64,000 nt of DNA from Longimicrobiales bacterium (GTDB lineage Bacteria > Gemmatimonadota > Gemmatimonadetes > Longimicrobiales > Gaopeijiaceae), in assembly GCA_965198065.1 (NCBI GenBank), contig CBDAON010000004.1:2016001-2080000 (forward strand), written 5' to 3'. Made by a program: the position numbers and the translations under genes. Below are positions 11,833 through 50,747 of this stretch, piece by piece; positions within the stretch are counted from its first letter, which is position 1, and the number at the start of each line of letters is the position of its first letter. The notes under the pieces were generated by a model. That model did not search any database. It saw only the letters and a list, made by a program, of their open reading frames with translations, and was not told where the DNA came from.

Positions 11833-12597
11833 TCAGCTTCCGAGCATTCGCCCGCCGTCTACCACGATCACCTCTCCGGTGATGAATGGCGACCGCTCGA
11901 GGAAGAGGATCGTGCGGACGACGTCGTCGGGAGATCCCAGCGTTCCCAGGGCGCTTCGCTCCCTGGACCCGCGATGCGCGTCCTCGTCGTAGCTCTCCGG
12001 AAGGAGGACCGCGCCAGGCGCGACCGCGTTCACGCGCACGGCGGGCGCGAGAGCCTGCGCCATGACCCGGGTGAGGTGGAGGAGCCCGGCCTTGGAGACC
12101 GCGTGATGCGGATTCTCCACCCACGGCTGGAATGCGGACAGGTCGATGAGGTTCACAACCCGTCCGTTCGCCTCGGTGAGCAGATCCGCCATAGCCTTGA
12201 CCATGAGGAACGGCCCCTTGAGGTTCACGGCCATTACCCGGTCCCACTCACGCTCCTGAACGTCCAATAAGGGGGCGCTCTGAAAGAGCGAGGCGTTGTT
12301 CACAAGCAGGTCGAGGCGTCCGAGCTCGTCGCGAAGACGCTGGGAGATGGCCTCGATATCCTCCGCGACGGCCACGTCGCCGCGTACCACGAGCGCCACA
12401 CGCCCGAGCTCCCGGACGCTATCGGCTACGGCCCGAGCCTCCGCGGCGGACGTGTGGTAGACGATCACCACGTCGTAGCCGGCCTCGGCGAGGCCTAGCG
12501 TGATGGCACGACCCACGCGGACGGCCCCGCCCGTGATGAGAGCGACCTTCTGCACCCGGTCGGTCCTCCAGTGCAATTGGGGGGGGCCACGACGCAT
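11833..12597 (-). CDS. SDR of pteridine reductase/FolM type (start probably near 12555)
   Basis: TGGAVRVG (PTR1/FolM-like Arg in the cofactor motif), LVNNASLF, LAPAVRVNAVAPG. Confidence 0.8.
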   Translation of the reverse strand: MRRGPPQLHWRTDRVQKVALITGGAVRVGRAITLGLAEAGYDVVIVYHTSAAEARAVADSVRELGRVALVVRGDVAVAEDIEAISQRLRDELGRLDLLVNNASLFQSAPLLDVQEREWDRVMAVNLKGPFLMVKAMADLLTEANGRVVNLIDLSAFQPWVENPHHAVSKAGLLHLTRVMAQALAPAVRVNAVAPGAVLLPESYDEDAHRGSRERSALGTLGSPDDVVRTILFLERSPFITGEVIVVDGGRMLGS

Positions 12598-12678
12598 TGA
12601 CGCCGCCCCGTGTCCCTCTTCCCGCGGCTCCGCGGGCCTTCAAGGTATCCGGCGGCCTGGACTCGAGGGAGGGCGCCC

Positions 12679-13404
12679 GTGAGCCGGCACGGTCCTTCGA
12701 TTGCCGTCATCACGGGAAGCACCCGAGGGATCGGACGGGCCATTGCGGAGACTCTCGTCCGGAGAGGGGATCGGGTCGTGGTGTCGGGGCGGAAGGCCAG
12801 GGACGCGGAGAGGGTGGCGAAGGAGCTCACGGCCGTGGGTGCGGGGGAGGCTGTAGGGATCGGCTGCGACGTTCGAAACGCCGTCCAGTGTCAGAAGCTC
12901 ATCGCCGGTGTGGTGGAGTGCTTCTCCGGACTGGACGTGCTCGTGAACAATGCCGGGCTCGGACGCTTCGCGAAGGTCCACGAGATGAAGCTCGAGGATT
13001 GGGACGCCCAGATCCGAACGAACCTGGACGGCGTCTTCCACTGCTCGAAGGCGGCCGTGCCCCATCTCATCGAGCGTGGGGGCGGGTGGATCGTGAACAT
13101 CGGGTCCCTCGCCGGGAGGAACGCCTTCTCGGGCGGGGCGGCTTACAACGCCAGCAAGTGGGGGCTTCTGGGCCTGTCGGAGGCCATGATGCTGGATCTC
13201 CGCCACGACGGGATCCGCGTGACGTGCGTCATGCCTGGGAGCGTGAGGACGGGGTTTTCCCCCGGGGGCGAGGACTCTTCGGACGCGTGGAAGCTCGCGC
13301 CCGAGGACGTCGCGCGGGTGGTCGTGGACCTCCTGGCCTTCCCTCCCCGAGCCCTTCCCAGCAAGATCGAGATCCGACCCAGTCGGCCTCCGCAGAGGAC
13401 CTAG
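12679..13404 (+). CDS. Short-chain dehydrogenase/reductase
   Basis: TGSTRGIG, NNAG, YNASK; GTG at 12679 within ORF 12610..13404. Confidence 0.88.
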   Translation: MSRHGPSIAVITGSTRGIGRAIAETLVRRGDRVVVSGRKARDAERVAKELTAVGAGEAVGIGCDVRNAVQCQKLIAGVVECFSGLDVLVNNAGLGRFAKVHEMKLEDWDAQIRTNLDGVFHCSKAAVPHLIERGGGWIVNIGSLAGRNAFSGGAAYNASKWGLLGLSEAMMLDLRHDGIRVTCVMPGSVRTGFSPGGEDSSDAWKLAPEDVARVVVDLLAFPPRALPSKIEIRPSRPPQRT

Positions 13405-13510
13405 TGGAGTGTAACCGGCCGTTCATCGGATGCGGGCCACTGGGGATGCAGAGCACCCCCGGGGGGATCGCTTGGCCGGGCCCGCCCATCCAACCACGGA
13501 GATCGAGCGG

Positions 13511-14914
13511 ATGATCGAGGAATTCCGGATCGAGAGGGACTCGCTGGGAGAGGTGAAGGTCCCTAAGCTGGCCCTCTACGGAGCGCAGACCCAGAGGGCC
13601 GTCGAGAACTTCCCGATCAGCGGCCGACGCTTCGGGCGCCGGATGATCGAGGCGCTCGGAATCGTGAAGCAGGCTGCCGCGCTCACGAACGCCGAGCTCG
13701 GGCTTCTAGACCGGGGCGTGGCGGACGTGATCGCCGAGGCTGCGGCGCAGGTCGCCCGCGGCGACTGGGACGACGAGTTTCCCGTCGACGTATACCAGAC
13801 GGGCTCTGGCACCTCGTCCAACATGAACGCGAACGAGGTGATGGCCCGGCTCGCCACGCAGGGGCTCGGCGTAGAGGTCCACCCGAACGATCACGTCAAC
13901 TTCGGGCAGTCGTCGAACGACGTGATCCCGACGGCGATCCACATAGCCGCTCGGCTCACCGTAGAACGGGACCTCCTCCCCGCCCTGGGGGAGCTGCACG
14001 ACGCGCTGGCGGAGAGGGCCGCCGAGCTCGATCACGTGGTCAAGTCGGGGCGCACGCATCTCATGGATGCCACGCCGGTCCGGCTCGGGCAGGAGTTCGG
14101 TGGTTATGCGGCCCAAGTCGCCCACGGGATGGGTCGCCTGCGGCTCGCGTCGGGCGAGTTGGGCGAGCTGGCGCTCGGAGGAACCGCCACCGGCACCGGG
14201 ATCAACACGCATCCCGACTTCGCTAGGGGGGCGATCCAGCTGATCTCGGAGCAGACGGGCCTCTCGTTCCGGGAGGCCGAGAACCACTTCGAGGCTCAGG
14301 GGGGACGCGACGCCCTCGTGCACGCCCACGGTGCGCTGAACACGGTGGCGGTGAGCCTCATGAAGATCGCGGACGACGTCCGCTGGCTCGCCTCCGGGCC
14401 GACCTCCGGGCTCTCGGAGATCTTCCTCCCCGCCGTGCAGCCCGGAAGCTCGATCATGCCCGGAAAGGTGAACCCCGTCCTCTCGGAGGCCCTCATGATG
14501 GTTGCGGCGCGGGTGGCCGGGAACCAAACGACACTCACAATCGCGGGGGGGCGCGGAAACTTCGAGCTGAACGTGATGATGCCGGTCATGATCCAGTCCT
14601 TCCTTGAGTCCGCGGAGCTACTCGCCAGGGCGGCGCGCGCGTTCACGGAAAAGTGCGTAAAGGGGATCCGGGCGAACGAGCCTCGGGCGCGTGAGCTCCT
14701 CGAGCGCAACCCAGCCATCGCGACGGCCCTGAATCTCCACATCGGCTACGACAAGGCCGCCGAGGTCGCTAAGCGGGCGGCTCAGGAGGGCCGTTCCGTC
14801 CGTGACATCGTGCTCGAGCTTGGGATCCTGGATCCGTCGCTCGTGGACGAGGCTCTGGACGTGCGAAGGATGACCGAGCCCGGCGTCGGGAACGGTGGTG
14901 GGGGTGGGAGCTGA
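13511..14914 (+). CDS. fumC: Class II fumarate hydratase
   Basis: [44 protein letters not shown]. Confidence 0.95.
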
Positions 14915-14940
14915 GCGCAGCTCCACCGGGGAGTCGGGCC

Positions 14941-15819
14941 ATGGCCGCGGAGGGCGGCGGTCCGGTCGGCAGCGACGAGCTGGGCGCGCACGTCTCGGTC
15001 GAGGGCGGGGTCTGGAACGCTCCGGAGCGCGCCCGGGCCATCGAGTCGGTGAACTTCCAGATGTTCACGAAGCAGCCGAACCGGTGGCAGGAGCCCGAGG
15101 TGTCGGAGGAGGAAGTCGAGCGTTTAGGGGAGGCCAGGCGGGAATGGGGAATCCGCACGGTCGCGTCCCACGACTCCTACCTGATCAACCTCGCGAGCCC
15201 GGACCCGAAGCTCTGGAAGCGGAGCGTGGGCGCGTTTCGACGCGAGCTCGTCCGGTGCGTGCAGCTCGGGGTGGACGTGCTCGTAACCCACCCCGGGAAC
15301 GCCACGGACGGGGACCTGCCGAGCGGCGTGGCCCGGAATGCGGAGGGCGTGGCCCGCTCGCTCGAGGAGGTCGAAGGCCCTACGCGCGTCCTCCTCGAGA
15401 TCACGGCGGGGTCCGGGACGTCGGTGGGCGGGAGCTTCGAGGCCCTGACGGAGATCATCGAGAGGATTTCCCCCGCCCAGCGGCATCGCCTGGGCATTTG
15501 CTTCGATACCTGCCACGCCTACTCGGCGGGGTACGATCTGGTCGGCGACTACGACGGCGTGTGGACGCGCTTTGGGGACGTCGTCGGGATGGAGCGCCTC
15601 GGCCTCTTCCACCTAAACGACTCGAAGCATCCCCTGGGCTCGCACAAGGACCGCCACGAGCACATCGGCGAGGGCACGCTCGGTGACGAGCCGTTCCGTG
15701 GGATCATGAACGACGCAAACTTCGACGGGATCACCAAGCTCCTCGAGACCCCGAAGGGTGACGATCCGGTCGTGACCGACCTCCGGAACCTGAACCGACT
15801 GAGGGGCTATCGGACGTAA
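14941..15819 (+). CDS. nfo: Endonuclease IV
   Basis: LGAHVS, HDSYLINLAS, CFDTCH, HLNDSK, DRHEHIGEG, LETPK. Confidence 0.95.
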   Translation: MAAEGGGPVGSDELGAHVSVEGGVWNAPERARAIESVNFQMFTKQPNRWQEPEVSEEEVERLGEARREWGIRTVASHDSYLINLASPDPKLWKRSVGAFRRELVRCVQLGVDVLVTHPGNATDGDLPSGVARNAEGVARSLEEVEGPTRVLLEITAGSGTSVGGSFEALTEIIERISPAQRHRLGICFDTCHAYSAGYDLVGDYDGVWTRFGDVVGMERLGLFHLNDSKHPLGSHKDRHEHIGEGTLGDEPFRGIMNDANFDGITKLLETPKGDDPVVTDLRNLNRLRGYRT

Positions 15820-15830
15820 TCCGATTTCGT

Positions 15831-15860
15831 TTGCGTCTGCGGCACGGGCGTTTCTATATT
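15831..15860 (+). promoter_or_regulatory. Sigma70-type promoter upstream of the pterin cluster leader
   Basis: TTGCGT-18 nt-TATATT, an AT-rich spot in a very GC-rich context. Confidence 0.55.
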
Positions 15861-15865
15861 GGCAG

Positions 15866-16066
15866 TCCGGTCGTGCCGGAGGCTCCAGGATTGAGCCAAC
15901 ACAAGAGAAGCCGGGACCGACTCCTGGGACGGACGTCCTGCCCCTGACGGGGACTTCGGAAGCTCCGGGGAAGTCACCAGAGAATTGCGACCCGGGCTTC
16001 GATCTCTTCCTCCGGTGCGCCCGTTTGGGGCCGACATCCCTCGGGGTGCCGGCCCTTCTTGTTGTG
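15866..16066 (+). ncRNA. Putative structured RNA or attenuator leader of unknown class
   Basis: Two small 5' hairpins, long-range complementarity between about 15897 and 16066, and a 3' terminator-like hairpin followed by a T-rich run. Confidence 0.4.
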
Positions 16067-16192
16067 TGCGCGGTGTCGTGCACGCGCCTGACGCGCGGTC
16101 GGCGGCGAGGCACGCGCCCCCCCCGGGGGGGATCCCACGGTCGGGACCGATCCTACCGGGCGGGGGTAGGGGACCGCTCGATCCGGAGAACC

Positions 16193-16609
16193 ATGCCACG
16201 CGTACGGGTGACCCGTCGACTCACGTTCTCGGCCGCGCACCGGCTGCACCGCGCCCACTGGAGCGAGGCCCGGAACCGGGAGGTGTTCGGGAACTGCTCC
16301 AACCCGAACTGGCACGGCCACAACTACGAGCTGGACGTGACGGTCGAAGGAGAGGTGGACGCGGAGACGGGGTACGTCTTCGACCTGAAGCGGCTGAAGG
16401 AGCTGGTGGAGAGCCGCATCGTCTCCGATCTGGACCACAGGAACCTGAACGTCGAGGTCCCGTGGATGGCTGGCGTGAACCCGTCCACGGAGAATCTGGT
16501 CGTGGCGATCTGGGAGCGGCTCGCGCCGGCGCTCCCAGCCGAGGTCAGCCTCAAGCGCCTCGTCCTCAGAGAGACCTCCAGCAACTCGGTGGAATATGAA
16601 GGCACGTGA
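16193..16609 (+). CDS. 6-pyruvoyl-tetrahydropterin synthase, type II (animal-like)
   Basis: [18 protein letters not shown] (C-x5-HGH), LDHRNLN, STENL. Confidence 0.88.
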
Positions 16610-17228
16610 AGACACGCTGAGCCTCGCCGTTCCGGAGCCGGAGACGCCCTTCCTGGCGGATGTCCCTTTGCCCCAGCTCGTGCGAGAGCTGATTCGACGC
16701 CTCGGCGACGACCCGTCGAGAGCCGGGCTGCTCCGCACGCCCGAGCGGGTGGCGGAGTCCCTCGCCTTCCTCACGCAGGGGTACGGCCTGTCTCCGCGGG
16801 AAATCGTGCAGGATGCTCTTTTCGAGGAGCACCACCACAACATGGTGATCGTGAAGGACATCGAGATGTACTCCCTCTGCGAGCATCATCTGCTGCCGTT
16901 CTTCGGGAAGGTGCACGTGGCGTATATCCCCGACGGCCGCATCCTGGGCCTGTCCAAGATCGCCCGGCTCGTGGAGGTATTCGCCCGTCGGCTGCAGGTG
17001 CAGGAGCGTCTCACCGAGCAGGTTGCCCAGAGCCTCTGGGAGGTGGTCGAGCCACTGGGTGTCGGCGTGGTGGTCGAGGCGTACCACCTCTGCATGATGA
17101 TGCGGGGCGTACAGAAGCAGAACTCCTACACGATCACGTCGGCCGTTCGGGGCGCGTTTCTGGAGGATGCGCGCACCCGCGACGAGTTCCTGAGGCTCTG
17201 TCAGAGCGAGCGCCGTCCTCTTGGTTAG
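16596..17228 (+). CDS. folE: GTP cyclohydrolase I
   Basis: [45 protein letters not shown]. Confidence 0.97.
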
Positions 17229-17235
17229 TGGCTCC

Positions 17236-17967
17236 ATGTCGGCTGATGCTCCCGCGCCACACGCCCCCGGGGCGCGGCGGGCGCTCGTCACCGGAGCGAC
17301 GGGCGGGATCGGAGGCGCGGTGGCCCGAGCCCTGGCTGGGCGCGGGTATCGGACTGGGTTGGTCGCGAGACGCGAGGGGCCGCTCCTGGCGCTTGCGGAG
17401 GAGCTCGGAGGGATTCCGATTCCGTGCGACGTCTCGGATCCGGATCAGGTCGCCGTTGCGGTTGGCCGGTTCGAGGAGGAGGCCGGCGGTCCCCCGGAGC
17501 TGGTCGTGAGCGCGGCGGGCGCGTTCTCGATCCAGGGCGTCCACGAGCTGACGCCCGTGGAGCTCCACCGGAACCTGTCGGTCAACCTGGAGGGAAGCAT
17601 CCTTTTCGCTCGCGCCGTCCTGCCGGCGATGAGGAAGGCACAGCGTGGAATCCTGATCCACGTCGGGTCGGTGGCGGGACGGCGGCCGTTCCCCGGGAAT
17701 GCGGCCTACGCTGCGTCGAAGCACGGGCTCCGCGGGTTCCACGAGGTCCTTCGGCTGGAGCTCACGGGGAGCGGAGTGCGGGTCACCCTCCTCGAGCCGG
17801 CGGCGACGGACACGCCGTTTTGGGATCCCATCGATCCGGACTCGGACGACGAGCTGCCGGGCCGGTCCCGGATGCTCCGGCCCGAGGACGTGGCGGACGC
17901 GGTACTCTTCGTGGCGGAGCGTCCGGACGGCGTTCAGATCTCCTACCTTTCGATCGAAAGGGTCTGA
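17236..17967 (+). CDS. NADP-type SDR (candidate sepiapterin-reductase-like)
   Basis: TGATGGIG, VARR, YAASK; lies between folE and queD. Confidence 0.8.
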   Translation: MSADAPAPHAPGARRALVTGATGGIGGAVARALAGRGYRTGLVARREGPLLALAEELGGIPIPCDVSDPDQVAVAVGRFEEEAGGPPELVVSAAGAFSIQGVHELTPVELHRNLSVNLEGSILFARAVLPAMRKAQRGILIHVGSVAGRRPFPGNAAYAASKHGLRGFHEVLRLELTGSGVRVTLLEPAATDTPFWDPIDPDSDDELPGRSRMLRPEDVADAVLFVAERPDGVQISYLSIERV

Positions 17968-17969
17968 CG

Positions 17970-18386
17970 ATGTACACGGTGAGCGTCCAGGCCCACTACG
18001 ACGCGGCGCACTTCCTCCGCAACTACGAGGGAAAGTGTGAGCGCCTCCACGGCCACCGGTACGTGGTCGAAGCGGCCGTCCGGACGCCCCGACTGAACAA
18101 ATCCGGCATCGCCATCGACTTCGTGGAGTTGAAGCGCCACCTGCGGGCTTTGGCGGAGGAGCTCGACCACCGGAACCTCAACGACCTCTCGCAGTTCGAG
18201 GGTCAGGAAACGAGCGCGGAGAATCAGGCCCGCTACTTCTTCGATGCCCTGAAGGCTCTCCTCCCCCCGGATCTGGCCGGCGGGCTAGCGTATACCCGGG
18301 TCTGGGAGACCCCCACCCAGTGGGCGCAGTACAGCCCGCTTCCAGCCTCGCCCTCTCCTGAAGGCGGCGCTTCGGGGCCGTCCTGA
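17970..18386 (+). CDS. queD: 6-carboxytetrahydropterin synthase (PTPS-I)
   Basis: YDAAHFLRNYEGKCERLHGHRY (C-x3-HGH), LDHRNLND, SAEN, VWET. Confidence 0.88.
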   Translation: MYTVSVQAHYDAAHFLRNYEGKCERLHGHRYVVEAAVRTPRLNKSGIAIDFVELKRHLRALAEELDHRNLNDLSQFEGQETSAENQARYFFDALKALLPPDLAGGLAYTRVWETPTQWAQYSPLPASPSPEGGASGPS

Positions 18387-18423
18387 GACGGCGGGGGCGG
18401 TCACGTGGAGCGACCCCTGGACC

Positions 18424-19053
18424 ATGCACCTCCTGGTCACGGACCGTCTGACCTGCGTTCGCTGCGGCCCCACGTTCGGACTGGTGCTCGTGGCGGACGA
18501 TCTCCGGGACCGTCGCCTGCTCGAGGGATTTCTCGGGTGCTCGAACTGCCGGGACCGGTACCCGGTCCAGGGTGGGTTCGGCGACCTCAGGCCCGCGCCC
18601 AGACGGGCCCTTGGGTCCGAGCCGCTCGAGAGCCCGCCGGATCCGGAAGGGGCGCTCAGGCTCGCGGCGCTCCTCGGGGTGAGAGAGGGGCCGGGTCTCC
18701 TCCTGCTTACCGGCTCTTCGGTACGGCAGGCCCTGGGCGTGGCGGAGCTGGTCGAGGGGATCGAGGTGGTGGCGGTGCACCCCGGCCTCTTCGGCGACGA
18801 AGAGATGCCCGGCGTGTCCCGGATTGTGTGCGGTAAGGGCCTGCCCTTCTTCTCGGGAAGCCTGCGGGGAGCGGTGGTGGAGGGCCCGTGGCCAGCCGAC
18901 GGCGTTCGAGAGGCGATCCGGGTTCTCGCTCCCGGAGCCCGCCTGGTCTGGCTGGATGCGCCGGCCGGCTCCATCGAGGGCCTGGAAGCGGCCGGGATCG
19001 AGCTCCTGATGGAAGCCGATTCCGTGCTGGTCGGGGCCCGGAAGTCGCCGTAA
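18424..19053 (+). CDS. Trm112-like zinc-ribbon fused to a degenerate methyltransferase-like domain
   Basis: LTCVRC...EGFLGCSNCRDRYPVQGG Trm112 pattern; LPFFSGSLRGAV and EAIRVLAPGARL resemble class I MTase motifs. Confidence 0.65.
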   Translation: MHLLVTDRLTCVRCGPTFGLVLVADDLRDRRLLEGFLGCSNCRDRYPVQGGFGDLRPAPRRALGSEPLESPPDPEGALRLAALLGVREGPGLLLLTGSSVRQALGVAELVEGIEVVAVHPGLFGDEEMPGVSRIVCGKGLPFFSGSLRGAVVEGPWPADGVREAIRVLAPGARLVWLDAPAGSIEGLEAAGIELLMEADSVLVGARKSP

Positions 19054-38045: not shown

Positions 38046-38118
38046 GCGCCGCTAGCTCAATTGGCAGAGCAACGGACTCTTAATCCGTAGGTTCTAGGTT
38101 CGATTCCTAGGCGGCGCA
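38046..38118 (+). tRNA. tRNA-Lys(CTT)
   Basis: Cloverleaf: acceptor GCGCCGC/GCGGCGC, anticodon arm ACGGA-CTCTTAA-TCCGT, T arm CTAGG-TTCGATT-CCTAG. Confidence 0.96.

Positions 38119-50224: not shown

Positions 50225-50747
<523 letters not shown>

Follow-up and report, generated by a model that had tools for sequence, protein, structure and literature searches.

6S RNA is a well-known RNA that resembles an open promoter and restrains RNA polymerase. It is usually about 180 to 200 nt long, is commonly found in the gene order zapA-6S-rny-ymdB, and in E. coli, where the order is zapA-ssrS-fau, its product RNA (pRNA) starts at U44. As described in PMC8876501, 6S RNA binds the housekeeping holoenzyme and serves as template for pRNA synthesis from its 5' bubble, and unwinding of helix P2 leads to release. 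The pRNA of B. subtilis 6S-1 begins with a G at C40. The same source describes, as release module, a bubble-collapse helix joining the distal 5' bubble to the 3' strand of P2 in B. subtilis and Aquifex and an extended 3' bubble hairpin in E. coli.

Here we describe an element in a 64,000-nt stretch of Longimicrobiales DNA (the window) that we consider, with a probability of roughly 0.93, to be a stand-alone, compact and divergent 6S RNA gene, most likely the organism's own. The observations behind this reading are the fold, its covariation, a phylum-wide and mostly single-copy distribution, homology to sequences that pass the Rfam model RF00013, and zapA/rny neighbours elsewhere. The RNA class and its mechanism are already well known; the standard database model misses this compact form.

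The element occupies the gap at 15820-16192, which has nfo on one side and, beyond it, a PTPS/QueD-family gene, folE, an SDR gene and a second PTPS-family gene (Table 1). These belong to a pterin cluster that spans window positions 11833-19053 and contains a PTPS-family gene, folE, an SDR, the second PTPS-family gene (17970-18386), a pteridine-reductase-like SDR on the minus strand (11833-12597) and a gene with a Trm112-like match that is weak. Among named relatives, those closest to FolE are mostly from Longimicrobiales and other Gemmatimonadota; three close relatives (L144, L181, L203) come from records titled Gammaproteobacteria, Kuenenia and Thermoplasmata, which are probably misbinned contigs. 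Elsewhere in the window, RNase P RNA followed by a tRNA (50229-50698) and a further tRNA (38046-38118) are ordinary. In the genome at large, ARAGORN reported a second, permuted tmRNA with an odd tag (G000:C4:918986-919658) in addition to the normal tmRNA at 64817-65177, likely a false call.

Table 1. Positions of the element, its parts and the adjoining genes in the window.
Feature	Position	Strand	Evidence or remark
-35-like hexamer, predicted promoter of the RNA gene	15831..15836	+	sequence; predicted start
-10-like hexamer TATATT	15855..15860	+	TANNNT in 79/96 loci vs 20.8 in shuffles
6S-type rod RNA, about 150 nt (about 195 nt including terminator)	15872..16019	+	consensus fold, covariation, models R1/R2, RNA contigs 15874-16029
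Closing stem, 5' strand (partner 16009-16019)	15872..15882	+	compensatory change in 12/12 pairs, 93% of cells paired
Helix P2, 5' strand (partner 15995-16004), one bulged U	15889..15897	+	most conserved part
Central bubble, 5' side	15898..15914	+	A15899 and C15900 invariant in 52/52
Apical stem with internal loops	15915..15975	+	helices 3-6, 91-98% paired
Central bubble, 3' side	15976..15994	+	unpaired in consensus; no hairpin here
Intrinsic-terminator-like hairpin and U-rich tail	16027..16063	+	predicted
Conserved two-part motif, 24 nt 5' of PTPS start	16143..16168	+	5/86 spacers vs 0.02 in shuffles
nfo, endonuclease IV, upstream neighbour	14941..15819	+	TIGR00587, 251 bits
PTPS/QueD-family gene, downstream neighbour	16193..16609	+	TIGR00039, 92.8 bits, under cut-off 125.5
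folE, GTP cyclohydrolase I	16596..17228	+	TIGR00063, 249.7 bits

The original prediction had placed in this gap a promoter, two small hairpins, a rod of about 170 nt and a terminator. A string check on the window located every sequence it quoted: TTGCGT at 15831, followed by an 18-nt spacer and TATATT at 15855; the small hairpin arms at 15866/15876 and 15881/15893; the rod arms at 15897/16049, 15940/16020 and 15965/16006; the terminator arms at 16028/16043 and the tail at 16056. The prediction is confirmed in part; the conserved rod is different from the one drawn. Transcription is predicted to start near 15866-15869. At 66 of 96 homologous loci a -35/-10 pattern lies upstream, compared with 1.8 in shuffles; a promoter tool returned none at this locus, the promoter falling under its threshold. 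The terminator-like hairpin is strong (-22.6 kcal/mol), forming on folding with a probability of 1.0 in four transcripts ending at 16060-16064; a weak U tract (6 of 8) follows it. Closing stem and terminator both form (0.99-1.0) when the transcript begins at 15868 or stops at 16060-16064.

The 170-nt rod is indeed the minimum-energy fold of segments 15866-16070 and 15895-16068, but its z-scores (-1.18 and -1.32) are no better than chance. It is dominant (0.70) only with a start at 15866 and an end at 16070, and drops to 0.04-0.05 for starts at 15870 or 15872. It was rejected because it is not conserved among homologues. The rod that is conserved spans 15872-16019 and ends 5' of the terminator; in it, the strands of the two small 5' hairpins and of the long rod pair otherwise.

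The conserved fold was derived from 52 distinct homologues picked by motif from 69 loci, with four duplicates and 13 loci lacking the motif omitted; eight of these 13 later matched model R1, built from relatives. The consensus is an unbranched rod made of a closing stem, helix P2, a central bubble and an apical stem. Altogether, 94% of the cells are paired and two-sided, compensatory changes occur at 26 of 39 pairs, counts that are inflated by kinship among the aligned sequences. None of 500 shuffles reached this fold support, and slid controls pair at 41-56%. In a wider set of 56 sequences, whose alignment was fitted to the model, 35 of the 39 pairs covary, and five of the 56 show an A-U to G-C change in P2. 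This helix and the bases after it are nearly invariant across the phylum. Thus, the covariation that the original prediction had proposed to look for in orthologous regions is seen, and it supports the arrangement of closing stem, central bubble and apical stem that characterizes the 6S class.

Against RF00013 (cut-off 46.4 bits) the sequence itself gives no match even at E≤10, whether the window, the gap or the genome is searched. In a scan against 4227 Rfam families, the gap was without match at curated cut-offs and had three chance matches at E≤10. By eye, the original prediction had matched no preQ1, THF or Moco consensus. Its homologues connect it to 6S RNA. When RF00013 was run blind on the 121 genomes of the order, it gave eight matches at E≤1, none over the cut-off, and seven of the eight fell on this element. 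When 16 of 40 fetched distant loci were scanned against all of Rfam, RF00013 hit the homologue in seven and missed the other nine; three of the seven, all from one family of another class, score over the cut-off (73.9, 67.8 and 59.6 bits). In the RF00013 alignments of homologues, P2 aligns to the consensus and the apical motifs, like the P2 motif, match it. A reciprocal model, R2, was built from nine zapA/rny-linked loci only; the reciprocal test is thus no more than partly independent, since these loci had first come from R1. R2 has its top match in the window at 15862-16026 (35.4 bits; next, 10.4), and in the whole genome it matches just this element and a second copy (35.4 and 44 bits). It also ranks E. 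coli ssrS first within a 3-kb locus, weakly (18.7 bits), and R1 finds nothing at ssrS in either the E. coli locus or the chromosome. Homology to accepted 6S RNAs is therefore carried by the three homologues over the cut-off, the R2 model and the seven blind matches. The rod is about 30 nt shorter than homologues of 183 nt, and the predicted primary transcript is about 195 nt.

Gene neighbours in other classes point the same way. At ten loci of other classes (Pfam scans covered 37 of 58 flanking ORFs), zapA lies upstream in five, rny downstream in seven, and one or both in eight; one locus of this class, L116, sits between zapA and ymdB. The zapA neighbourhood is absent at the locus studied here and present for the homologues of other classes; in this genome some 200 nt separate zapA from rny, and no match lies between them. 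The distribution makes it likely that, early in the class Gemmatimonadetes, the gene left a zapA-rny site for one in front of PTPS-folE.

Model R1 matches in 141 of 151 genomes of the phylum, with one copy in 134 and more than one in seven. A BLAST count of 115 of 201 genomes, which alone includes the unpublished genome G139, is too high because several weak matches cover the terminator only, and the R1 counts are used instead. As predicted from promoters (66/96), terminators (42/44) and single copies (134/141), the element has the character of a stand-alone gene present about once per genome, as expected of 6S RNA. Neither zapA nor rny adjoins the two weakest second copies, which score about 30 bits. 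In one genome (G051), two extra copies (L066:1480-1723 and L122:1916-2154) each have a tRNA-Met directly 3'. The second copy in the genome studied here (L101, G000:C4:1495322-1495484, minus strand) has its own -10 pattern and terminator-like hairpin and precedes a truncated PTPS gene and then an integrase-core transposase. Its identity is 88% with the L061 copy, from another genus, and 72% with the window copy, suggesting transfer or a chimeric assembly. Selenocysteine was considered for the TGA in this PTPS copy and rejected: similarity stops near residue 93, and the transposase gene follows.

RNA data give a weak hint that the element is expressed. In five metatranscriptome runs from five studies, one contig each lies on the rod (15874-16019, 15877-16013, 15883-16017, 15876-16014 and 15875-16029), covering 135-155 nt; three have adapter-like loose ends and none extends to 16065. 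The runs had been picked for containing this stretch, and such contigs cannot give ends, strand or level. All five share T15925C, by which a U-G pair in the apical stem becomes C-G; the contigs therefore come from a close relative, and the absence of nfo or PTPS coverage from that organism carries no evidential weight. A further run, of unrecorded kind, covers 14788-16333 with zero differences.

Within the central bubble, positions 15907-15914 can pair with 15992-16000 in 95% of cells; two-sided changes are absent, since the P2 strand is invariant. The predicted collapse helix is G+C-rich (about -11.7 kcal/mol). Other families have different 5' bubble sequences that likewise pair with the 3' P2 strand, and in two loci of another class a matched change is found on both sides. 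Taken singly, only 39 of 106 loci pass a shuffle test of the helix (p≤0.05), which makes this test no more than suggestive. A release element, be it a collapse helix or a 3' bubble hairpin, is predicted in most homologues; a preformed 3' bubble hairpin occurs in 0 of 41 members of the family of the window's copy. 6S RNA at rest requires an open bubble; for this sequence the folding model favours the collapsed bubble (P2, 0.18; collapse helix, 0.55). We predict that the pRNA starts opposite C15900, because this base is invariant and by analogy with the G start at C40 in B. subtilis and the U44 start in E. coli. In another family (f3), six loci (L014, L016, L019, L022, L067, L068) show a strong 3' bubble hairpin (-8 to -11 kcal/mol) and no collapse-helix motif, all but L068 also having the P2 A-U changed to G-C; other members carry the collapse helix or both modules. 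The release module may thus have been switched within this family.

Taken as a 6S RNA, the element would work as follows. Between the predicted promoter and terminator, the conserved rod, about 150 nt long and with a central bubble, would bind the housekeeping RNA polymerase as a mimic of the open promoter. Once nucleotides return, the bubble would serve the polymerase as template for a short product RNA, likely initiated with G opposite C15900 by analogy with B. subtilis 6S-1 as described in PMC8876501. This synthesis would unwind P2 and leave its 3' strand free to pair with 15907-15914, and the resulting bubble-collapse helix would release the enzyme.

The position of the gene raises the question of a role in cis, for which linkage is the best argument: PTPS or folE lies within 600 nt downstream at 86 of 97 loci of the class and at none of ten of other classes. 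The count is biased towards linkage, since roughly one locus in four had been fetched through PTPS. Exceptions include homologues 5' of rny, ymdB, tRNA-Met (two loci) and opposite-strand genes (L029, L115, L126). One explanation, compatible with a 6S RNA gene, is dual use, in which regulated read-through of the terminator would let the 6S promoter drive the pterin operon as well and selection would keep the linkage. In favour of it are the tightness of the linkage across the class, the weakness of the U tract here and its absence, by rule, from 8 of 52 homologues, and the presence of fau/ygfA, a folate gene, next to 6S in E. coli and in further groups (PMC9130861). However, no switch is conserved, the gene order may simply be inherited by kin that are not independent, and the pterin operon may have a promoter of its own. 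The two-part motif in front of PTPS, whose pattern was derived from the same five of 86 loci in which it was counted and which occurs once in this genome, is a possible candidate for such a promoter, perhaps one of an alternative sigma factor, or for a protein site. We therefore regard dual use as unlikely. Equally doubtful is the fuller proposal that the compact 6S gene moved before PTPS-folE and was kept there class-wide since pterin/folate gene expression depends on its promoter and leaky terminator as well; if true, it would tie the use of GTP by FolE to GTP-primed release of polymerase, and fau beside proteobacterial 6S would be an independent case of coupling.

It is very unlikely that the RNA, though derived from 6S, has changed its partner or function, binding for example core polymerase, as Ms1 does, or another sigma factor. 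The shortened closing stem, the bulge in P2, the lost RF00013 score and the collapsed bubble favoured in some sequences could be so explained. Yet the near invariance of P2 and the following bases throughout the phylum and the release elements predicted in most homologues argue against this, and a truncated B. subtilis 6S-1 still works in vitro, according to PMC8876501.

The first option of the original prediction was a new riboswitch or attenuator, considered here as a cis element sensing a pterin, folate or GTP-derived ligand and controlling read-through into PTPS-folE; its second, a stand-alone rod RNA such as 6S, is the one that fold, covariation and homology support. Besides the linkage, the riboswitch could claim that folE is often directly next where PTPS is absent, that the second copy in this genome likewise lies 5' of a PTPS gene, that an antiterminator-like fold is available to transcript 15866-16070 of this sequence, and that THF-II is a known folE riboswitch class (PMC6800512). 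Mutually exclusive terminator and antiterminator folds, the general mark of such a switch, are nevertheless not conserved. Among the 44 homologues with a U tract (the eight of 52 without one by rule being dropped), the long-range pairing, which requires U-tract bases, exceeds a probability of 0.3 in none (0.27 in this sequence); the terminator exceeds 0.7, independently of the rod, in 42. The proposed duplex gains no strength when both strands are taken from one locus rather than from two (own pairs -10.95, cross pairs -10.89 kcal/mol), and the rod closes before the terminator with no strand in common. Nor does the element always precede functionally related genes, given the copies 5' of tRNA-Met, rny and opposite-strand genes and the other-class loci away from PTPS/folE. 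With homologues that are RF00013 members and no match to an Rfam riboswitch, this option is extremely improbable.

Recognition of the element as a 6S RNA gene removes a false riboswitch candidate and fills an annotation gap, RF00013 passing in 0 of 121 genomes of the order and the lineage model in 141 of 151 of the phylum. Our search found no literature linking 6S RNA with a Gemmatimonad; the main 6S surveys (Wehner 2014, Barrick 2005, Wassarman 2018) and their supplements lay outside it. The lineage also offers natural variants for the study of mechanism, namely a short closing stem and one family with either a collapse helix or a 3' bubble hairpin.

Compared with the THF-II (folE motif), preQ1, THF and Moco riboswitches, the element shares a site upstream of folE/PTPS-type genes and differs in size, in fold and in having neither an Rfam match nor a conserved expression platform. 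With the 6S RNAs of RF00013, E. coli ssrS among them, it shares a rod with a central bubble and one copy per genome, and its homologues add the P2 and apical motifs that align to the consensus and, in other classes, the zapA neighbour. The window RNA departs from RF00013 in escaping the model, in a rod of about 150 instead of about 183 nt and in the extra bulged U of P2; unlike ssrS, it lacks a 3' bubble hairpin and is followed by its own terminator hairpin and then by PTPS-folE in place of fau. Relative to B. subtilis 6S-1 and Aquifex aeolicus 6S, to which it is likened by description, its family is set apart by the missing preformed 3' bubble hairpin (0/41), and the element itself by the high G+C content of its predicted collapse helix. 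It has in common with them a distal 5' bubble that can pair with the 3' strand of P2 and, as predicted here and described for these RNAs in PMC8876501, a pRNA initiated with G opposite a C.
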